Positions 792 to 10,429 of a stretch of DNA of 11,397 nt are shown here, in pieces. The position numbers and the translations under genes were made by a program. Source of the DNA: a virus; IMG/VR virus record IMGVR_UViG_3300035701_000002. One strand, 5' to 3'. The notes beneath the pieces were generated by a model. The model saw nothing but the letters and a program-made list of their open reading frames with translations. It ran no database searches and was not told the DNA's origin. Positions within the stretch are counted from its first letter, which is position 1. Every line of letters starts with the position of its first letter.

Positions 792-902
792 TCCCTCAGC
801 CATGATTCAACTTCACTGAGGGGAGCTAACACTACACCGGAAAGTTGCACACTAAAGCACGGTGCAGTATATCTGTCAAACGGGTCACGAGGCATGAAAC
901 TT

Positions 903-1214
903 TTAACGCGGGGCCGGCGTTAGCTCCAAGAACTGAGTGAGGCCCATCATGCCGGCCCTGGAAGTCGAGTAGCGAAGTATCCTGCGCGACACGACGTACG
1001 GGCCTGAAACCTTCCTGAACTTGCCCGGATCGGACGGGTTCTTCAGGGAAAGGTCGAACTCGATCTCCGTCCCTTCCTGCAACAAGGCCATGCTGCCGAC
1101 CCTGTACTCAAGATGCTTTGGGAGGTCCGTAAAGACGAAGATCGTCCGGACGTGTCCCGATTCCTGAGGCTGACCCGCACTGTCGATCACTACTTTATCC
1201 TCTTCACTGCCCAT
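903..1214 (-). CDS. Hypothetical protein, 103 aa
   Basis: It is in the ORF track. A GAGGGA Shine-Dalgarno-like motif lies 7 nt upstream of ATG (1212-1214) on the minus strand. Codon use is coding-like. I recognise no domain. Confidence 0.5.
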   Translation of the reverse strand: MGSEEDKVVIDSAGQPQESGHVRTIFVFTDLPKHLEYRVGSMALLQEGTEIEFDLSLKNPSDPGKFRKVSGPYVVSRRILRYSTSRAGMMGLTQFLELTPAPR

Positions 1215-1345
1215 ATCCTAATCCCTCGCCTCCGCTCCCTCTCCCTCTACTGACGCTCGCTTCGCTCGCTTGACTGTCTCTGCTAAAGCAGAGACGGGGA
1301 TCGAAGAGAGAGGAGAGAAGAAAAGGTTCTTCCGAAGAGAGGGGG
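1215..1345. repeat. Strand-asymmetric low-complexity tract: a polypyrimidine (CT-rich) run at 1215-1262 followed by a polypurine (GA-rich) run at 1296-1345, flanking a hairpin
   Basis: The sequence runs tcctaatccctcgcctccgctccctctccctctac ... gatcgaagagagaggagagaagaaaaggttcttccgaagagaggggg. It sits in the largest non-coding stretch in the window (1215-1601), between divergent genes. Confidence 0.5.
1274..1297. promoter_or_regulatory. Perfect hairpin/palindrome GTCTCTGC-taaa-GCAGAGAC (8-bp stem, extendable to about 10 bp), in a divergent intergenic region
   Basis: The arms at 1276-1283 and 1288-1295 are exact reverse complements with a 4-nt loop. No T-run follows, so an operator or RNA structure is more likely than an intrinsic terminator. 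Confidence 0.35.
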
Positions 1346-1453
1346 CCGGACTCGCCGGATACCTAGCTTCTCGGGCGGGTCCGGAGGGGCTCCGGGGTTC
1401 CGACCGTCTTCCTGGCTCAGTTCTTCCTAGTCTACGCTGCCGTCCCGGAGGAT

Positions 1454-1498
1454 CGGGGGAGAGGATCCCTGCTTCTGCTCCTTGGAGCCTCTCCCCCG
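1454..1498. promoter_or_regulatory. 11-bp inverted repeat CGGGGGAGAGG ... CCTCTCCCCCG with a 23-nt spacer, about 100 nt upstream of the 1602 gene
   Basis: The arms at 1454-1464 and 1488-1498 are exact reverse complements. It could be a transcription-factor site or a leader RNA structure for the operon beginning at 1602. Confidence 0.3.
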
Positions 1499-1601
1499 CC
1501 AGGATCAGAACGTAGTGTCCTGAACCCGCGGTCCGCGTCTCTGCGGTCGGACTCTACAGCGGAGAAGGCTCCTTGATGCACGTACATTGTAGGATAACGA
1601 C

Positions 1602-2336
1602 ATGAAAAAGGGTCCGAAGACGGGGCCCGGACTCCCCGCCGAGGCCGCCGAGGCCGTCGAGAGGTGCGTCGCGAGGATGGCGTCCAAGAAGGACGCTCCC
1701 TACTTCCGGCACTTTCTGACAGAGCTTGTGGCCAACAACGCCCTTCCGGCCGAGATCCTCGAACATGTGCCCGTCCCGGCGTCGGAGGTGGGTAAGACGA
1801 GGTTCGACCAGGTCTACGACGCCGCGATGGCCCTCGTTTTCCCCGGGTACAGGAGAGAGACCCTCGAGAGGCTCCTTGGGCCGCTCGAGGGTCGAGGGGG
1901 GAAGGTGTGGCGGGTTCTTCTCCCCGAGCGCTTCCGTATCGCCCACGTCCTGATCAGGGCCCGAAGCTTTCAGGAGGCCTTCTCCCTCGGATGCGACTAC
2001 GCCTGCCGGGCGTCCCTCCGGGCGTTCGGGAAGGTCCCTGTGGATCTGACGATAAGGGTCGTGTTCATGAGCGAGAGGGCCATACGCAGAATGCTGGACA
2101 TGCGCTGGGCCAACAAGCACAGAAAGCGACAGCAGCTCAAGCTCGTGGGGCGCGAGTTCACGGACAGGCAGGTGAACGGGGCCAGGCTCGTTGCGCTCGG
2201 GCATCCGAAGGACCCGAAGCACTCCGTGGTCAAGTACACGGAGAAGAAGGACCTGGACAAGGTCCGGAAGTCCCGCGGGATGACGCGCACCTCGTCGGTC
2301 GAGCACGAGTCGTACAGGGTCCCGAAGGAGCCGTAG
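1602..2336 (+). CDS. Hypothetical protein, 244 aa; first gene of the PurA-like operon
   Basis: The ORF has very high GC3. It stops with TAG 49 nt before the next gene, whose start carries a strong GGAGGAG Shine-Dalgarno motif, so co-transcription is likely. I recognise no domain. An internal alternative start (MASKK) is possible. Confidence 0.6.
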   Translation: MKKGPKTGPGLPAEAAEAVERCVARMASKKDAPYFRHFLTELVANNALPAEILEHVPVPASEVGKTRFDQVYDAAMALVFPGYRRETLERLLGPLEGRGGKVWRVLLPERFRIAHVLIRARSFQEAFSLGCDYACRASLRAFGKVPVDLTIRVVFMSERAIRRMLDMRWANKHRKRQQLKLVGREFTDRQVNGARLVALGHPKDPKHSVVKYTEKKDLDKVRKSRGMTRTSSVEHESYRVPKEP

Positions 2337-2385
2337 GGCCGACCGCTGTACTGTCCGTCATGAAAAGAACCTGTCGGAGGAGCAA

Positions 2386-3564
2386 ATGATCGAAGGTCGG
2401 ATGAACTTCATACTCGACGCTTTCTGGGGCTCGAGCGGCAAGGGGAAGACGTCGACGTGGCTCGCGGACCACCACAACGTGACGAACGTCTCGAGCTCGA
2501 ACTATCCGAACGCGGGCCATACGGCGCAGTTCGAGGACGGGACGAAGTTCGTGGCCAAGGCGATTCCGACGGCGGCCGTCCTGCGCAAGACTCGCGGCCT
2601 CGGGATGAGGTGCTTCATCTCCCCGGGATCCGGCTTCTCGCCGAAGCAGCTCCTGAAGGAGTGGGAGGAATGCGGCAGGCCGGACATGTTCGTCCACGAC
2701 CGTGCCAGCCTCGTGACCGAGGAGCACGCGGCCAGGGAGCGCGAGGGGTCCGAGTCGACCAAGCACATCGCGTCGACGATGCAGGGGTCCGGAACCGCCA
2801 TCGCGGACAAGGTCATGAGGAAGGCGGACGTCCAGCTCGCCGGCCACAACAGCGCATGGCTCGACGTCATCGCGGCGATGAGGCCGGAATCGTCCGACGA
2901 GATCAGGCGGAGGATTCAGGTCGTCCCGGCCATGGAGTTCAGGAACTTCGTCCACGGCGCGATCCGGGAGGGGAAGACCTGGCTTCACGAGGGATCCCAG
3001 GGCTACGCCCTCTCCATCGACCACGGGTCGCATTATCCGCACTGCACGAGCAGGAACTGCACGATCCAGGCGGCGATGGACCACATGGCGATCCCTCCCT
3101 CCATGGTCGGAGACGTATACCTCAACCTCAGGACTCACCCGATCCGGGTCGGGAACGTCGTGGAGGACGGCAGGCAGACTGGCTTCTCCGGAGGTTTTTA
3201 TCCGGACTGCCGGGAGATGACCTGGGAGCAGGTCGCGGCGGAGTCGGGAATGCCTCCGGCCGAGGCCGCGGAGCTTGCGGAGCGCGAGCGGACGACCGTG
3301 ACCAAGAGGATCAGGCGCGTCTGCACGTTCTCGTTCGAGGGCCTCCGAGACGCGGTCCGCGTGAACGGGGCGACGAAGCTCGTGCTGAACTTCATCCAGT
3401 ACGTGTGCTGGGAGGACAAGGGCCTCAAGGGCGGACGAGAGGCTTTCGAGAGCCTGTCAAGAAAGAGCCGCGAGTTCATCGACAAGGTCGAACGTGAGGC
3501 GAACCTTCCGGTCGTCCTCATCGGGACCGGACCGAACCACAACGAGATGATCGTCAGGGGGTGA
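2386..3564 (+). CDS. Adenylosuccinate synthetase family protein (PurA/PurZ-like), 392 aa, with a non-canonical P-loop and non-canonical GTP-specificity motif
   Basis: Family motifs seen in the translation: the P-loop GSSGKGK (canonical PurA has GDEGKGK); an exact NAGHT (catalytic His) at nt 2509-2523; EGSQGYALSIDHGSHYPHCTSRN (PurA has [22 protein letters not shown]) at nt 2989-3057; TKLV where PurA has TKLD (nt 3373-3384); and a C-terminal LIGTGPNHNEMI (PurA has ISTGPDRTETMI). A GGAGGAG Shine-Dalgarno motif lies 5 nt upstream. The TGA stop overlaps the GTG start of the next gene. Confidence 0.85.
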   Translation: MIEGRMNFILDAFWGSSGKGKTSTWLADHHNVTNVSSSNYPNAGHTAQFEDGTKFVAKAIPTAAVLRKTRGLGMRCFISPGSGFSPKQLLKEWEECGRPDMFVHDRASLVTEEHAAREREGSESTKHIASTMQGSGTAIADKVMRKADVQLAGHNSAWLDVIAAMRPESSDEIRRRIQVVPAMEFRNFVHGAIREGKTWLHEGSQGYALSIDHGSHYPHCTSRNCTIQAAMDHMAIPPSMVGDVYLNLRTHPIRVGNVVEDGRQTGFSGGFYPDCREMTWEQVAAESGMPPAEAAELAERERTTVTKRIRRVCTFSFEGLRDAVRVNGATKLVLNFIQYVCWEDKGLKGGREAFESLSRKSREFIDKVEREANLPVVLIGTGPNHNEMIVRG

Positions 3565-4040
3565 CCGTGGGCGGGGAGAAGAGCAAGCTCGTCCGTTTCT
3601 ACGAAGGTTCCGGGACGGACCATGCCGGGAGGAGCCTCAGGCAGATCTTGGCCTGGTCCGACGGCAGGCTGGAGTCAGTCCATGACTACATCCAGTGGCT
3701 GTTCCCGAACAGAAAGCCGAGCGACTTCAACCCGCACGCCCCGATCGTGACGCAGGACGACTCTGACGAGTTCAGGAGAAGGCCAGAGCTCCAGGGAGCC
3801 CTGTCAATGTCCGCGGACCGCATGGAGGCGTTCTACGACCTCGGGAGCACGAAGCCGTGGTGGGTAACCCCGTCCAACCACAACTATCTGAGGATAACCA
3901 GGGTCCTTCTCTCGCTGAAGGACCTGGGCCTCGAAGCGAGAGCCCTGTCCCTGTTTGAAAAGCTCTCGGACGTGTACACGGTGAACGTGGACGTGATTCC
4001 GTCGAAGACTGTGGCCCTCTGGATAAGTGCGATAGGATGA
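3561..4040 (+). CDS. OGFr N-terminal conserved-domain (opioid growth factor receptor-like) family protein, 159 aa
   Basis: The GTG start overlaps the PurA-like stop (GTGA). The motifs HDYIQWLFP(N)...NPHAP and HNYLRITRVLLSLKDLGLE match the human OGFR conserved region as I recall it (HSYIQWLFPLREPGVNWHAKP; NNLRITRILKSLGELGLE). GC3 is high. Confidence 0.7.
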   Translation: MTVGGEKSKLVRFYEGSGTDHAGRSLRQILAWSDGRLESVHDYIQWLFPNRKPSDFNPHAPIVTQDDSDEFRRRPELQGALSMSADRMEAFYDLGSTKPWWVTPSNHNYLRITRVLLSLKDLGLEARALSLFEKLSDVYTVNVDVIPSKTVALWISAIG

Positions 4041-4159
4041 AGAACCTCGACAAAGAGCCGGGTTTCTGGCTGACCGTCATCATGCTCGTCCCGCTCATCA
4101 TCGCCGTGGAGATCTTGCTCTTGTTCGAGAAGCGAGCTGCGTCCGGGAAGGCCCCATGA
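4037..4159 (+). CDS. Small single-pass membrane peptide, 40 aa (MKNLDKEPGFWLTVIMLVPLIIAVEILLLFEKRAASGKAP)
   Basis: It is not in the ORF track because it is too short. Its ATG overlaps the OGFr-like stop (ATGA) and its TGA overlaps the next ATG (ATGA). It has a hydrophobic core helix and coding-like GC3. It is one link in a chain of coupled genes. Confidence 0.5.
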   Translation: MKNLDKEPGFWLTVIMLVPLIIAVEILLLFEKRAASGKAP

Positions 4160-4416
4160 GCAAGGCCGACGGCGTCCCCGAGGTCTTCGGAGAGGGGGAC
4201 GTGACCATAGTGATGAGCTCGACGGGGACGCGTCTCTACCTAGGGACGATCCTCGTCGGATGCCTGGAGAAGGTTGAGGCTTCCGCGGGCCCTGACGGGA
4301 TGAGCCCGTCGCTCACAGTCACGTTCCCGAAGAGCCACGAGACGGCCATGTCGACGACGATAGAGGAGAACGCGAGGGTCCTCAGGGCCGCGGGTTGGGT
4401 CAGGGTCCTTCAGTAG
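4156..4416 (+). CDS. Hypothetical protein, 86 aa; last gene of the coupled operon
   Basis: It is in the ORF track. The ATG overlaps the upstream stop. It ends with TAG and overlaps the 3' end of the convergent 4400..4975 gene by 17 nt. Confidence 0.5.
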   Translation: MSKADGVPEVFGEGDVTIVMSSTGTRLYLGTILVGCLEKVEASAGPDGMSPSLTVTFPKSHETAMSTTIEENARVLRAAGWVRVLQ

Positions 4417-4975
4417 GCGGGTCGGATCTCCTCTTCCTCTTCAGGTGAATTCCGACCTGGTCCGGGTTCTCGACCATGTACTTGTGGCAAGAGTGGAAGT
4501 AGTCCGGGATGGGGTGGGCGGCGTCCTTCATCATCAGGGACTCGAACACGGTCCGTCCTCCGGAGGCGCCCCACATCCAGTCCTCGTCGATGGGGACGTC
4601 CGGGGACCTCTGGCTCCAGACGTTCCCGTACGGGAACATGAGGAGTATGAACTCTTTTTTGGAGAAGTGCGGGTTCGGCATGGGCACGAACTCCTCCTTC
4701 CTCTTGATCGACAGGAACACGCCGGGCGGCAGGACGACGCCCTCGGGGGTCGAGGTTACCCATCTCTTGATGGACATCCACTTAACCTCCGGCGTCTTGA
4801 CCCCGGTCTTCTTCCGGCAGGAAAGCGAGCAGTTGTAGAGCGCCGACGGAGAAAGGCCGCAAGTCCACGGACTGAAGTCGTCCGGGACTCCCCGGAAGAC
4901 ATGCATGGACCTGAAGAACGGTATCTTGATGGCCTCAACGGCCTGCTGTACTTTCTCAAGAACTTCTTTATCCAT
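4400..4975 (-). CDS. Hypothetical protein, 192 aa (Lys-rich; unknown function), divergent from the ThyX-like gene
   Basis: The ORF track extends to 5062, but the first ATG with an upstream GGAG is at 4973-4975 (MDKEVLEKVQQAVEAIK...). GC3 is high over the body. I recognise no domain. Confidence 0.6.
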   Translation of the reverse strand: MDKEVLEKVQQAVEAIKIPFFRSMHVFRGVPDDFSPWTCGLSPSALYNCSLSCRKKTGVKTPEVKWMSIKRWVTSTPEGVVLPPGVFLSIKRKEEFVPMPNPHFSKKEFILLMFPYGNVWSQRSPDVPIDEDWMWGASGGRTVFESLMMKDAAHPIPDYFHSCHKYMVENPDQVGIHLKRKRRSDPPTEGP

Positions 4976-4990
4976 CGGGAGAGCTCCGAA

Positions 4991-6325
4991 ATGGCAGATA
5001 CAAAGGTGGACGTGTTTTGCTTGACCGACGGCCTCGGTCAGGTTCTTCACCCTGCAGTGCAAGCTACTGTACTGGCGAAGTACTCGAGATCCCCGATGTC
5101 GGCGAGGGACATCGTCTCAGGCCTGACCCTCGAGGAGGCGGACAGGTTCCAGGACAAGTGGGTCGTCGGATACGGCCACTCGAGCGTGGCGGAGCTCGCC
5201 ACGATACCCCTCTGCTTCGAGGGGGTGTCTATCGTCGCGTCCAAATTCCTGGAGTCATGGCAGAGGCCAGGGTACTCGGAGAAAAGCACGAGGTACCAGG
5301 CTTTCTCCCGGGACTCGTTCGTGAGCCCTCCGGGAGCCCCGAGCACCATGAAGCACTTCGCCTCCAGGCTGTACGACGCCTACGAGAGCCTCCTTCCGAA
5401 GGTCTCCGCGATCGTCGCAGCGAAAACGGGCAAGGACAAGGACGACAGGACCGTGAAGGCCCGGGCGTTCGACAACGTCCGGTATCTTCTTCCGGCCGGT
5501 ACGGGGACGAACCTCGCATGGGTGGGGAACGCAAGGGACGTTCGGTACATGATCTCCTCCGCACTCGGATCGACGAACCCCGAGTTCAGGGCCATCGGGG
5601 AGGCCGCGTCGAAGGCCGTGTCCGAGCTATGTCCGGTGTTCGTGCGGGACGCCGAGCCGGACTCGTTCGAGCCTACGATTCGCTCTCTGGGGAAGACAAG
5701 TCCGAAGTTCGACTACAGGAATCCAAGCTGGTACGTGGACGTACACAGGCCGCACCTGATGCCATCCCCCGATCTCGTACAGAAGTCGTTCGAGTCCTCC
5801 TTGGCCGACATGTACGGGATGAGCTGGACGGCGTTCTGCAAGCACATGGACTCCCGGGGAAAAAGGGCGGTCCCCAGAATCTTCAGGACAGCACGGATCG
5901 CGTTCGACGTCATGATGGACTACGGGGCGTACCGCGATCTCCAGAGGCACCGCCGGTGCGAGCAGTACCCGGAGCCGCTGGCGGCCGGATACGGATATCT
6001 GGTCCCGGACGACATACTCGGGACAGACCTCGAGGCCGAGTATCGGGCTGCCATGGACTCAGTCCTGGCGTACGAGGACGAGACCGTCGTCCACGACGAA
6101 GACCTCATGCAGTACATGATACCCCTCGGATACCTCCACAGGTCGGTCTTCGAGATGGACCTGGCCGAGCTGTACTACCTGTCCGAACTGAGGACTCAGC
6201 CTCAGGGACACATATCGTACAGAAGGGTCGCGTACGGGATGTACTCCGAGGCGTCCGCACTGATCCCCGGCCTGATGCGATGGTGTCGCGCTATTCGTCC
6301 GGACGAGATAGGCGAGCACCGGTGA
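4991..6325 (+). CDS. Tandem (two-domain) ThyX-like flavin-dependent thymidylate synthase family protein, about 444 aa, with complementary degeneration of the catalytic motifs in the two halves
   Basis: The start ATG at 4991 is preceded by GGGAGAG. The N-terminus (KVDVF...LAKYSRS) resembles a ThyX N-terminus. The N-terminal half has GHSSVAEL (ThyX HxSVxEH-like, nt 5174-5197), SEKSTRY (the ThyX SxRY motif, nt 5285-5296) and NARDVRY (ThyX NxRxLxHF-like, nt 5528-5548), but it has SWQ where RHR is expected. The C-terminal half has ...YRDLQRHRR (the RHR motif, nt 5945-5956) and LRTQPQGHISYRRVA (ThyX C-terminal LR...H..EIR..A-like, nt 6188-6229), but it lacks SxRY. The ORF-track entry 4445..6325 is the same frame with a spurious 5' extension antisense to the 192-aa gene. 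Confidence 0.75.
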   Translation: MADTKVDVFCLTDGLGQVLHPAVQATVLAKYSRSPMSARDIVSGLTLEEADRFQDKWVVGYGHSSVAELATIPLCFEGVSIVASKFLESWQRPGYSEKSTRYQAFSRDSFVSPPGAPSTMKHFASRLYDAYESLLPKVSAIVAAKTGKDKDDRTVKARAFDNVRYLLPAGTGTNLAWVGNARDVRYMISSALGSTNPEFRAIGEAASKAVSELCPVFVRDAEPDSFEPTIRSLGKTSPKFDYRNPSWYVDVHRPHLMPSPDLVQKSFESSLADMYGMSWTAFCKHMDSRGKRAVPRIFRTARIAFDVMMDYGAYRDLQRHRRCEQYPEPLAAGYGYLVPDDILGTDLEAEYRAAMDSVLAYEDETVVHDEDLMQYMIPLGYLHRSVFEMDLAELYYLSELRTQPQGHISYRRVAYGMYSEASALIPGLMRWCRAIRPDEIGEHR

Positions 6326-6870: not shown

Positions 6871-6920
6871 GATGGACGCTACCGAGATGGACCGGGCGTT
6901 GACGTATAGACGGAAGGAAC

Positions 6921-7823
6921 ATGTCCCTTAAGAACGCGGCCGAAACTGAGACCATGAGAGATACGGGCAAAGGGCTTCCGGAGAAGGGGTTCTTCGAGCT
7001 CGACCTCATGTCAAGCAAGATCATGTGGATGAACGAGTTCTCCCTGACGAAGGTAGGGATGAACCTCGAGCAAGCACAGTCCATGACCGTCTACGACGTG
7101 GTCCCGGAGGAGTTCCACGACTCTCTGAGCAGCTTCATCTCCGACGCTTCGAGCGGGAGGACGTCCAAGTTCTACATCTGGCCGTTCCGATCCTCGGACA
7201 TGAGCGTCACGTGGTGGTACTTCGCCCGGTTCAAGTCGGACCACCCGACCCACTGGTTCAAGGCCGAGTTCCTGAACAAGACCGGGAAGTCGGGCCCAGA
7301 GTATTCGTCCATGCTGGCGGCCATGAACACGGCGAACAGCTACAACGACCTGTACAACAAGCTCTCGGACTTCCAGCTGTTCACCAAGTCGAACATCGAC
7401 TCCATCAACGAGAAGGTCCAGGAGCTGAAGGATGAGCAGGCCGTCTTGAAGGAGCAGATCGTGGGGGCGACGTCGGCGGCTAACAGGGCGGCGAACGCGG
7501 CCATCGACGTCTCGTCCGCCATGAGGAACTTCAAGACGGACGTCCAGGAGCAGTTCTCGAAACAGACGGTGGAGATCCTGCGCCTAATCAGCACGGACGC
7601 CGTCCACGACCAGCGGCTCGTGGCGTTCGAGAAGCACATACAGAAGACGACGGACAACGCGGTCCGCGTCATAACGGTCCAGGCGGACAAGGCAGGACAG
7701 ATCATCACGACGCAGGCGGACAAGGCCGGAAAGAGCCTGTCGAGGAAGGTCACGATCCCGATAGGCGCAATCGCGGCGGTAATGACGATCTTGCAGTGGA
7801 TCATCACGCACTGGCCCAAGTGA
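6921..7823 (+). CDS. PAS-like N-terminal domain, central coiled-coil and C-terminal transmembrane anchor protein, 300 aa
   Basis: A GGAAGGA Shine-Dalgarno-like motif lies 4 nt upstream of the ATG. The PAS-like segment is GFFELDL...YIWPFRSSDMSVTWWYFARF. The middle of the protein is rich in heptad-like Q/E/K/A residues. An imperfect tandem peptide repeat TVQADKAGQII/TTQADKAGKSL is present (the 14-nt direct repeat caggcggacaaggc occurs twice, within 7680-7730). The C-terminal hydrophobic helix is IPIGAIAAVMTILQWIITHW. Confidence 0.6.
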   Translation: MSLKNAAETETMRDTGKGLPEKGFFELDLMSSKIMWMNEFSLTKVGMNLEQAQSMTVYDVVPEEFHDSLSSFISDASSGRTSKFYIWPFRSSDMSVTWWYFARFKSDHPTHWFKAEFLNKTGKSGPEYSSMLAAMNTANSYNDLYNKLSDFQLFTKSNIDSINEKVQELKDEQAVLKEQIVGATSAANRAANAAIDVSSAMRNFKTDVQEQFSKQTVEILRLISTDAVHDQRLVAFEKHIQKTTDNAVRVITVQADKAGQIITTQADKAGKSLSRKVTIPIGAIAAVMTILQWIITHWPK

Positions 7824-7848
7824 CGCTCGAGGTCAGTAAAGTTCGCGA

Positions 7849-8322
7849 ATGGGCTCAAGCGACCCGCCTGACGGCGAAATCAGCATAGAGATACCGCTCC
7901 CTCCGGGGACGGCCTCCTCGGGGCCGCCGGGAGGGAAGGATCACGGGCGCCTGAAGGCCTGGACGAACTTCATCGCCACCGCCGCAGCCCTGCTGGTCGC
8001 AGCAGCGGCGATACTGAAGCCACAGGACCACTCGACGGCCAGAGCCTCGTACGACGAGCTCAAGAAGGCTGTGGACGAGAACTCGCAGAACGACCGAAGG
8101 AACCACGAGGACCTCGTGGCCCTCAGGAACTACATGGACGGCTACCTGAAGGGGGCGGGGGCTGCGACGTCGCTCCCGTCGTCCATGCCGGTACCGTCGA
8201 CGTCCGGCTCAGCCAGGGCTATCCCCCCAGCTCCGGTCGCCACCATGCCTCCCCTCCCGGTACTCCATCCGGAGCCGAAGCCCCACAACCTTCCAGACTT
8301 CGACGCGGTGATGAAGAAATGA
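7849..8322 (+). CDS. Single-pass membrane protein with a Pro-rich C-terminal tail, 157 aa
   Basis: It is in the ORF track. The TM segment is WTNFIATAAALLVAAAAIL. The C-terminal region is Pro/Ser/Ala-rich. Its TGA overlaps the ATG of the downstream peptidase (ATGA). Confidence 0.55.
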   Translation: MGSSDPPDGEISIEIPLPPGTASSGPPGGKDHGRLKAWTNFIATAAALLVAAAAILKPQDHSTARASYDELKKAVDENSQNDRRNHEDLVALRNYMDGYLKGAGAATSLPSSMPVPSTSGSARAIPPAPVATMPPLPVLHPEPKPHNLPDFDAVMKK

Positions 8323-9814: not shown

Positions 9815-10429
9815 ATGGAACAGACAGACCTGATAGCGCTCATCGACCTGGACGGGACCGTGGCGGACTACGACTCCGCACTGATTGAGTCCATGAGGGC
9901 CATCCAGTCGCCGGACGAAACCCCGTACAAGAACCGGTACGAGGACGGCGGCGCAAGGGAGGAGATACCTCACGTTGAGGCCCGAAGGAGGCTCATCCAG
10001 AGGCAGCCTGGCTTTTGGAGGAACCTGAAGCCGCTGCCGGCAGGGTTCGAGGTGGTGGACGAGCTCAGGTCTCTCGGATTCTCGCTGCACGTCCTGACGA
10101 AGGGACCCGTCTCCACGCCCGTGGCGTGGAGCGAGAAGGTCGAATGGTGCCAGCGCCATCTCGAGGACGCCGTAGTGACGGTCACCGGCGACAAGAGCCT
10201 GGTGTACGGGCGTATACTCGTGGACGACTTCCCGCCGTACTTCACGAAGTGGCTGACCGTGAGGCCGCGCGGGCTCGTGGTGTGCATTGCCCACCCGTGG
10301 AACGCGGGGTATGCGAAGGGCGAGAAGCAGGAGCACCCGAACGTGCTCAGGTACGACGGGACGAACCGGGATGAGCTCAGGGCCAGGGTGCAGCGCGCGT
10401 ACGAGAGGACCGCGGGCGGGGGATTGTAG
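9815..10429 (+). CDS. HAD-superfamily 5'(3')-deoxyribonucleotidase-like hydrolase, about 204 aa
   Basis: The N-terminal LIDLDGTVADYD is HAD motif I (DxDGT), as in NT5C-type nucleotidases (DMDGVLADF). The second acidic motif is near the C-terminus (GRILVDDFP). The true start is the internal ATG at 9815 within the track ORF 9599..10429. GC3 is high. Confidence 0.7.
   Translation: MEQTDLIALIDLDGTVADYDSALIESMRAIQSPDETPYKNRYEDGGAREEIPHVEARRRLIQRQPGFWRNLKPLPAGFEVVDELRSLGFSLHVLTKGPVSTPVAWSEKVEWCQRHLEDAVVTVTGDKSLVYGRILVDDFPPYFTKWLTVRPRGLVVCIAHPWNAGYAKGEKQEHPNVLRYDGTNRDELRARVQRAYERTAGGGL

Follow-up and report, generated by a model that had tools for sequence, protein, structure and literature searches.

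The stretch of DNA analysed here, hereafter the window, is a single strand of 11,397 nucleotides (nt) from the virus record IMGVR_UViG_3300035701_000002, and all positions below are those of the whole stretch. Between 1602 and 4416 it carries five genes, the second of which encodes an enzyme of the adenylosuccinate synthetase superfamily. We consider it fairly probable that this region is a purine-modification module of an uncultivated jumbo phage, composed of a divergent PurZ core, two partner proteins of 244 and 86 amino acids (aa), here g244 and p86, and a slot for accessory genes. On this reading a jumbo-phage lineage has a divergent PurZ module, with two new constant partners and with accessory insertions. 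In other phages PurZ performs the first step in replacing adenine by 2-aminoadenine (Z) in DNA. The characterised Z-genome phages are siphoviruses and podoviruses of roughly 40–70 kb with a recognisable PurZ/DatZ/MazZ/DpoZ cluster. If our reading is true, Z-DNA or a variant purine chemistry would be extended to giant phages, in which PurZ has different constant neighbours.

The identity of the enzyme is the basis of this reading. An earlier note on this DNA called the gene PurA-like and its product a ligase; a generic PurA it is not. The enzyme matches Pfam PF00709 (2e-35) and PHROG 1211, a PurZ family annotated as '2-aminooxy adenylosuccinate synthetase' (1e-60). Its best relatives in 50,697 deposited phage genomes are annotated PurZ/PurA proteins of Z-type phages (Vibrio, Acinetobacter, Arthrobacter and others) with 31–36% identity, and no relative above about 36% was found there. 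More specifically, the P-loop reads FWGSSGKG in the window enzyme, QFGSTGKG in PhiVC8 PurZ and QWGDEGKG in P. horikoshii PurA. Where PurA has its catalytic Asp13 the window enzyme has Ser16, which aligns with S14 of PhiVC8 PurZ. In a published comparison 99% of PurA sequences keep Asp13, and 100% of phage PurZ have Ser (PMC12884076). The segment facing the base of the phosphate donor is LNFIQY in the window and LNFCNY in PhiVC8, as compared to TMLDKY in P. horikoshii, where TMLD is the guanine-specificity motif. In PhiVC8 PurZ, for which residue roles have been described, F295 and Y298 stack on the adenine of ATP (bioRxiv 10.1101/2025.10.22.683976). This aromatic pocket is present in the window enzyme, and T262, W252, Y244 and P233 are kept as well. 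The signature is widespread in the clade: WGSSGKG occurs in all 41 members in which the N-terminus is covered and NF[IV]QY in 32 of the 36 sequences spanning that region. Because these residues, i.e. Ser for Asp13 and the ATP-type aromatic pocket, decide the question rather than the scores, we assign the window protein with moderate confidence to a deep-branching, PurZ-like type of enzyme whose function can be named. The active-site signature suggests activity on deoxyguanosine monophosphate (dGMP) with ATP.

LAGLIDADG inteins interrupt PurZ in frame in two of the relatives (6893–8137 in locus L011, about 236–1250 in L009). The one in L011 is placed exactly at the catalytic NAGHT motif, between H and T, and the near-identical phage of L092 lacks it. 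We count these inteins as a sign of the importance of PurZ. Group I or group II introns were considered as the interruption in L011 and L009 and rejected: there was no Rfam match, and the inserts are inteins.

The composition of the module was delimited by comparison with about 45 distinct related loci (referred to by L numbers), which come from contigs as long as 436 kb and have guanine-cytosine (GC) contents of 31–66%. They were collected by exact-protein look-ups, IMG/VR scans and one metagenome scan, and mapped by tblastn with the proteins of the window. The common order is g103 (−), g244 (+), PurZ (+), slot, p86 (+), g220 (−), ThyX (+) and g300. In nearly all of these loci g244 lies directly upstream of PurZ on the same strand, at a distance ranging from −4 nt up to a few hundred nt where small open reading frames (ORFs) are inserted; the exceptions are inversions in L018, L105 and L124. 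p86 closes the PurZ unit in most loci. What lies between PurZ and p86 is variable: among 27 fully covered loci the PurZ-to-g220 interval measures 49–2138 nt, and an OGFr-like gene is present in six of them. In the closest relative (L007/L088, g244 81% and PurZ 82% identical) the 40-aa ORF of the window, p40, is missing and the OGFr-like gene overlaps p86 directly by GTGA. In L089 (PurZ 81% identical) p86 follows about 30 nt after PurZ, with neither OGFr nor p40 in between. Elsewhere the slot is occupied by an HNH endonuclease gene (L012, with unconfirmed HNH candidates in L013 and L021), by a gene for a NADAR-OGFr_N fusion (L013), or by a gene on the opposite strand for a Mom-family and Vsr-like endonuclease protein of 506–509 aa (L015 8203–9732 (−) and L017 7933–9453 (−)). 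The Mom family takes in the adenine-modifying enzyme of phage Mu. The slot between PurZ and p86 is an insertion hot-spot for mobile and accessory genes and not a fixed part of a machine, and the conserved unit is g244-PurZ-p86 only. The OGFr-like gene and p40, which is confined to one strain, are add-ons; it is g244, PurZ and p86 that keep together across divergent genomes. Note that the block PurZ-g220-ThyX is inverted relative to g244 in L018, L105 and L124/L126.

Features of the window discussed in the text, with coordinates and the evidence or remarks for each
Feature	Coordinates	Strand	Evidence or remarks
Conserved element of about 277 nt, candidate structured RNA	1285..1561	.	Covarying helices; between divergent g103 (−) and g244 (+)
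g244, conserved 244-aa protein, constant upstream neighbour of PurZ	1602..2336	+	Synteny
Spacer between g244 and PurZ	2345..2389	+	Motif GCTGTACTGTC at 2345–2355, mini-ORF of 9 codons, Shine-Dalgarno GGAGGAG at 2374–2380
PurZ-like succino-amino-deoxyadenylate synthase (putative), divergent member of the adenylosuccinate synthetase superfamily	2386..3564	+	Pfam, PHROG, NCBIfam, PDB, active-site motifs
OGFr_N-domain protein, accessory gene in the variable slot	3561..4040	+	159 aa, or 157 aa from GTG 3567
p40, 40-aa ORF with one predicted transmembrane helix, strain-specific	4037..4159	+	Coding statistics, hydropathy
p86, small conserved protein, usual downstream partner of PurZ	4156..4416	+	Homologues close the PurZ unit in most loci
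g220, convergent conserved gene bounding the unit (191 aa from ATG 4975)	4400..4975	−	3' end overlaps p86 by 17 nt
ThyX, flavin-dependent thymidylate synthase, 444 aa	4991..6325	+	Pfam PF02511 at 4.5e-30, two matched stretches

Regarding the gene string itself, the ORF list and the sequence bear out the five ORFs that the earlier note had placed here, all on the + strand and with products of 244, 392, 159, 40 and 86 aa in order. The same holds for its description of the 244-aa gene as being followed by a strong Shine-Dalgarno motif: the g244 stop lies at 2336, the ATG of the PurZ-like gene 49 nt downstream, and the motif listed in the table 5 nt ahead of this ATG. The genes from PurZ onwards had been described as a chain of 4-nt stop-start overlaps. 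The strings are there (GTGA at 3561–3564, ATGA at 4037–4040 and ATGA at 4156–4159), and the first of these overlaps hinges on the choice of the OGFr-like start. At GTG 3561 an AGGGGG abuts the start with a spacer of 0, whereas at the in-frame GTG 3567 it lies 5 nt upstream, which is the canonical spacing. GTG 3567 is thus the better spaced of the two. Public gene calls give the product 159 aa in some cases and 157 aa in others, and the alignment with homologues begins only at residue 7. The PurZ-OGFr junction may therefore be a gap of 2 nt instead of an overlap. Overlaps of 4 nt are found at 6–7 of the 20 same-strand junctions in the 21-kb locus L001, and in relatives they occur at shifted junctions, namely OGFr-p86 (L007, L008), PurZ-p86 (L016) and g244-PurZ (L021). 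Because they are common in this way and move between junctions, stop-start chaining is the ordinary compact packing of this genome. The string resembles translationally coupled phage genes with ATGA or GTGA in its shared stop and start bases, its co-directional genes and its weak or absent downstream Shine-Dalgarno motifs, but nothing sets it apart from other junctions of the same genome. Stop-start overlaps in compact phage genomes are by themselves no sign of a shared function; here it is synteny that parted the core from the add-ons.

The proposal of one operon stands in part. All five genes are co-directional, none of the gaps between them exceeds 49 nt, and a scan of 800–5200 predicted neither a terminator-like site on the + strand nor a sigma-70-like promoter. 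A co-directional, tightly packed transcription unit is plausible, and its genes may be co-transcribed; as a unit of five it is not kept in the relatives. The scan is weak evidence, because a jumbo phage possibly has promoters of its own. Against a single transcript stands the conserved motif in the g244-PurZ spacer, which could act as an internal promoter. In 9 of 14 loci a TGTACNGT-like motif precedes PurZ, at a distance that varies from 5 to 80 nt. The pattern has 3 copies in the window as compared to 0.39 expected, and one of these (4945) is inside the g220 coding sequence. As a genome-wide promoter motif TGTAC... was rejected: it is not enriched upstream of other L001 genes, and the copy on the ThyX side is the one within g220. 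The mini-ORF in the same spacer runs from ATG 2360 to TGA 2389, its stop overlapping the PurZ ATG, and its start is GTG in L001.

The first gene in the slot encodes an OGFr_N protein (PF04664, 51.2 bits against a gathering threshold of 22). In an alignment of 29 sequences the motifs HDYIQW and NHN..R..R are invariant, and the invariant polar residues E38, H41, D42, H107, N108 and R114 are suggestive of an active site. The window protein shares HDYIQW and NHNYLRITR with bacterial and viral members of the family; it differs from them as a stand-alone phage protein of 157–159 aa, and the family is without known biochemical function. It has no match among solved structures. In IMG/VR a pattern scan yielded 65 viral OGFr loci, mostly of jumbo phages and some from giant-virus bins, and only two of the 65 are next to PurZ. 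In viruses the domain is fused to NADAR (L013 8355–9488, and weakly in L080), to an OTU-like protease (weak, L080), to a UCH deubiquitinase (L071) and to a UBA-like domain (L078). In L084 an alphavirus-like RNA replicase carries it between its methyltransferase and its helicase. In such replicases this interval is the usual place of macro or OTU domains. For NADAR and Macro domains, which jumbo phages and RNA viruses have in common, a role in counter-defence has been proposed (PMC7824862). By analogy with these architectures OGFr_N is probably an accessory counter-defence module; that its basis is domain-fusion architecture only weighs against this assignment. We found no paper linking OGFr_N with phages or with NADAR, and the fusions are a testable lead for a domain without known biochemistry.

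The enzyme may alternatively be a genuine PurA, i.e. an adenylosuccinate synthetase. Its gene would then be an auxiliary metabolic one, raising the AMP/dATP supply of a phage with ordinary adenine in its DNA. Several observations weigh against the PurZ assignment, and three of them (the near-equal scores, the C-terminal alignment and the lack of DatZ and DpoZ nearby) also favour PurA. By score the window protein is nearly equidistant between archaeal PurA and PurZ: its best NCBIfam model is NF038379 PurZ with 192.1 bits, under the curated cut-off of 300, followed by archaeal-type PurA (NF003295) with 185 bits, and its matches in PDB are PhiVC8 PurZ (115.7 bits), P. horikoshii PurA (2D7U/5K7X, 113.3 bits) and S-2L PurZ (108 bits). 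Compared with the PhiVC8 and S-2L enzymes (6FM0, 7ODX), to which it is about 32–36% identical, it has two insertions, and its C-terminal 100 residues align with P. horikoshii PurA and not with PhiVC8 PurZ. The position of PurZ F12, before the P-loop, is Trp as in archaeal PurA, with S14 and T262 conserved. In addition, Ser or Gly replaces Asp13 in a few basal archaeal relatives (PMC12884076). The usual partners are missing as well. In Vibrio phage K300 PurZ is flanked by DpoZ (DNA polymerase) and DatZ (dATP triphosphohydrolase). Known Z phages encode dATP-removing and dGMP-supplying enzymes and a Z-selective polymerase within about 3 kb of purZ. When the K300 DatZ and DpoZ were used as tblastn queries against the related loci (1.22 Mb, covering 5–10 kb around PurZ), nothing matched at E<=0.01 (there was no query for MazZ, and the rest of the genomes was unread), and the Pfam annotation of the contigs records no HD, MazG or dUTPase domain within about 10 kb of PurZ. 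PurA is nevertheless contradicted by the Ser found at the Asp13 position in every clade member, by the exchange of the GTP-specific motif for the aromatic pair that binds the adenine of ATP in PurZ, and by scores far under every PurA equivalog cut-off (140 against 395 bits for TIGR00184, 185 against 368 for NF003295), and we regard it as unlikely. For a PurZ-like enzyme, either adenine exclusion is encoded elsewhere in the genome, or it is carried out by other proteins, or the substitution is partial. One possibility for such proteins is a pair of NT5C-family 5'(3')-deoxyribonucleotidases encoded near the module (9815–10429 (+) in the window, 19556–20122 (−) in L001), which could edit the dAMP/dNMP pool in place of DatZ or DmtZ.

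The other alternatives concern the genes around the enzyme. The earlier note reasoned from coupling to a shared function of all five genes, and in its strongest form all five products would be one stoichiometric unit or complex around the ligase, with the overlaps enforcing equal expression. The single strand, two or three consecutive 4-nt overlaps and a scan without internal terminator or sigma-70 promoter speak for it. Synteny largely refutes it: of the five genes that might have travelled together only g244, PurZ and p86 do so, the OGFr-like gene is in a minority of the fully covered loci and p40 in a single strain, the closest relatives lack p40 and one of them OGFr too, 63 other viral OGFr loci are without PurZ, and the overlaps are common genome-wide and sit at different junctions in relatives. 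We therefore give such a complex very little probability. Hardly more credit is due to the idea that the OGFr_N protein itself functions in the Z pathway, e.g. as a nucleotide hydrolase replacing DatZ or MazZ. Its place directly after PurZ in six members of the lineage, its invariant polar constellation and the lack of DatZ near PurZ in the loci searched would fit this role, but it is absent from 21 of the 27 PurZ loci, nearly all viral OGFr loci are without PurZ, there is no fold similarity to HD or MazG enzymes, and the fusion partners point to erasers of ADP-ribose or ubiquitin-like marks. As to p40, its frame could be open by chance, in which case the OGFr-like gene and p86 would merely be separated by an inserted spacer of 116 nt. 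A frame of this length is open in about 23% of shuffles, the Shine-Dalgarno motif is poor (AGG abuts the ATG), and no homologue was found by tblastn in the related loci or by a back-translated pattern scan of IMG/VR (0 matches). A 35-aa ORF between PurZ and OGFr in L008 was rejected as a homologue, being neither hydrophobic nor similar. Against chance stand the GC contents of the three codon positions (0.54/0.34/0.85), which match the strong third-position bias of the genome (permutation p about 5e-5), and a codon log-likelihood of 0.56 per codon, as compared to 0.24–0.67 for the genes of the window and negative values in the other two forward frames. Moreover, the frame spans exactly from the upstream stop to the downstream start, and it encodes a strongly hydrophobic segment of 21 residues with charged ends on both sides (Kyte-Doolittle peak 2.85 over 19 residues). 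We find a chance frame rather unlikely. Because there is no homologue, selection on p40 is not measurable, which is a further point against it as a gene; it is a probable real but orphan gene for a small membrane protein, with no demonstrable link to PurZ. Its frame and helix had been noticed before as missed by the ORF track; public gene finders, on the other hand, call it on every contig.

The earlier note had also put forward the 244-, 40- and 86-aa products as novel components. p40 drops out of this list. g244 and p86, because of their constant association with PurZ, are the best candidates for new pathway components, and would give the module two concrete proteins to follow. g244 has more than 208 homologues, all of them unannotated and without a Pfam domain. 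Arg and Asp are frequent among its 28 invariant columns, and the C-terminal half is basic. A predicted model of moderate confidence (predicted local distance difference test, pLDDT, 68.9) gave no fold match. Homologues of p86 measure 76–90 aa, with divergent or tandem copies in L015, L017 and L021. A profile search collected 23 proteins, all hypothetical and without a Pfam domain, which have in common VF..G..T near the N-terminus, SH(D/E), IEE..R and a W near the C-terminus. PADLOC and NCBIfam gave no match for the four non-PurZ products.

A scheme that would accommodate these observations is as follows. A PurZ-type enzyme would condense dGMP and aspartate, using ATP, to N6-succino-2-amino-2'-deoxyadenylate, which would be the committed step towards dZTP and 2-aminoadenine DNA. 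The enzyme would be kept together with two lineage-specific proteins, g244 encoded just ahead of it and p86 closing the unit, in a setting of deoxynucleotide metabolism formed by the adjoining ThyX and by ribonucleotide reductase and NT5C-type deoxynucleotidases nearby. The PurZ-p86 interval would take up mobile or accessory genes such as HNH endonucleases, a Mom-like gene and OGFr_N genes. In the strain of the window the slot would hold the OGFr_N protein, most likely a counter-defence 'eraser' or binding module, and the 40-aa membrane peptide. The overlaps would permit translational coupling along one transcript; they need not mark a machine of five subunits. A bolder proposal, which we put forward only tentatively, is that a jumbo-phage lineage makes 2-aminoadenine or a related purine with a deep-branching PurZ and g244/p86 instead of DatZ/MazZ/DpoZ, beside a new structured RNA of about 277 nt that controls either this module or the divergent gene next to it, and that, separately, OGFr_N is an unrecognised counter-defence enzyme domain of phages, giant viruses and RNA viruses.

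The sequence is also found in public assemblies. An identical PurZ-like protein is found on 14 contigs in ENA, JGI and Logan assemblies from several samples, the longest of those read being 108.8 kb. The same sequence was assembled from at least six samples on contigs of 109–160 kb, proteins identical to the OGFr-like and g244 products are encoded by contigs reaching 160 kb, and for the NT5C protein of the window a contig of 0.2–1 Mb is on record as well. These lengths differ from the roughly 40–70 kb of the phages with the PhiVC8/S-2L type of Z-cluster. A megablast of the window against the 50,697 phage genomes gave no match, and in the literature we found no paper linking PurZ with jumbo phages. 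On the right side the unit is bounded by g220, which is 48–74% identical in all loci reaching it and has no family match in Pfam, PHROG or NCBIfam. ThyX adjoins g220 in every locus that extends that far. The usual length of ThyX is about half of the 444 aa found here, and the window protein suggests a tandem-domain form. The starts of g220 (−) and ThyX (+) are back to back, about 15 nt apart (4975–4991), and the 3' ends of g220 and p86 overlap at 4400–4416, so any promoters and terminators around g220 must sit within coding sequence. The wider neighbours include a class II ribonucleotide reductase, a clamp-loader-like protein, ThyX, the two NT5C deoxynucleotidases, a peptidoglycan-binding protein and QueC. 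The last of these, a homologue of 7-cyano-7-deazaguanine synthase (16730–17587 in L130/L131), is encoded about 6 kb past the right end of the window and is followed by genes for DUF7277/DUF7275 and DHHA1 proteins. Its nearness to the window is a hint of 7-deazaguanine modification, and the same phage may carry a second purine modification in the form of 7-deazaguanine derivatives.

Upstream of g244 the window contains a conserved element that we regard as a candidate new class of structured RNA beside the module. It sits in a divergent intergenic region of 387 nt and is conserved across loci of very different GC content. Searches with nhmmer over 1.2 Mb of related loci detected copies in about 30 distinct ones; every copy directly precedes g244 in one and the same orientation, and there are none at other places. 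The domain contains several hairpins and is closed by a long-range helix, P1, formed in the window by GCAGAGACGGGGAUC and GGUCCGCGUCUCUGC, and many compensatory variants of this helix occur. When 25 copies were aligned with MAFFT from sequence only, the 27 pairs of 4 helices proved to be paired in 78.3% of cases, as compared to 33–46% with slid partners. The covariation score is 0.363 against at most 0.129, and none of 500 shuffles reaches 0.363. The cognate strands of P1 have a pairing energy of −8.9 kcal/mol and non-cognate ones −4.5 (permutation p<1e-4). The thermodynamic z-scores of the element are not significant, and searches for tRNA and tmRNA were negative. In its long-range closing helix that encloses hairpins, and in its fixed place by a conserved gene, the element resembles structured RNAs and riboswitch leaders by nucleotide-metabolism genes; it differs in being longer than most riboswitch aptamers and in lying outside the 4227 families of Rfam 15, with no match at E<=1 in the window and none at E<=5 in five other loci. 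Signals for the strand are in conflict: three positions with dominant G·U pairs favour the + strand, whereas the − strand is preferred by the total folding energy in 19 of 25 copies and by the outer portion of P1. Because of this conflict the element may be the leader of either the PurZ unit or g103. An RNA switch, with a hairpin at 1277–1295 competing with P1 in the window and L007, was considered and rejected, since it is not conserved and the pairing energy of cognate and non-cognate strands is the same (p = 0.52). In L018, L020 and L105 the g103-g244 spacer is only 24–77 nt long and lacks the structured element. Between the element and the g103 start several loci have a second conserved motif, AGCGAAGC on the − strand; in the window it lies at about 1250–1275, with GCTCGCTTCGCTCGC on the + strand.

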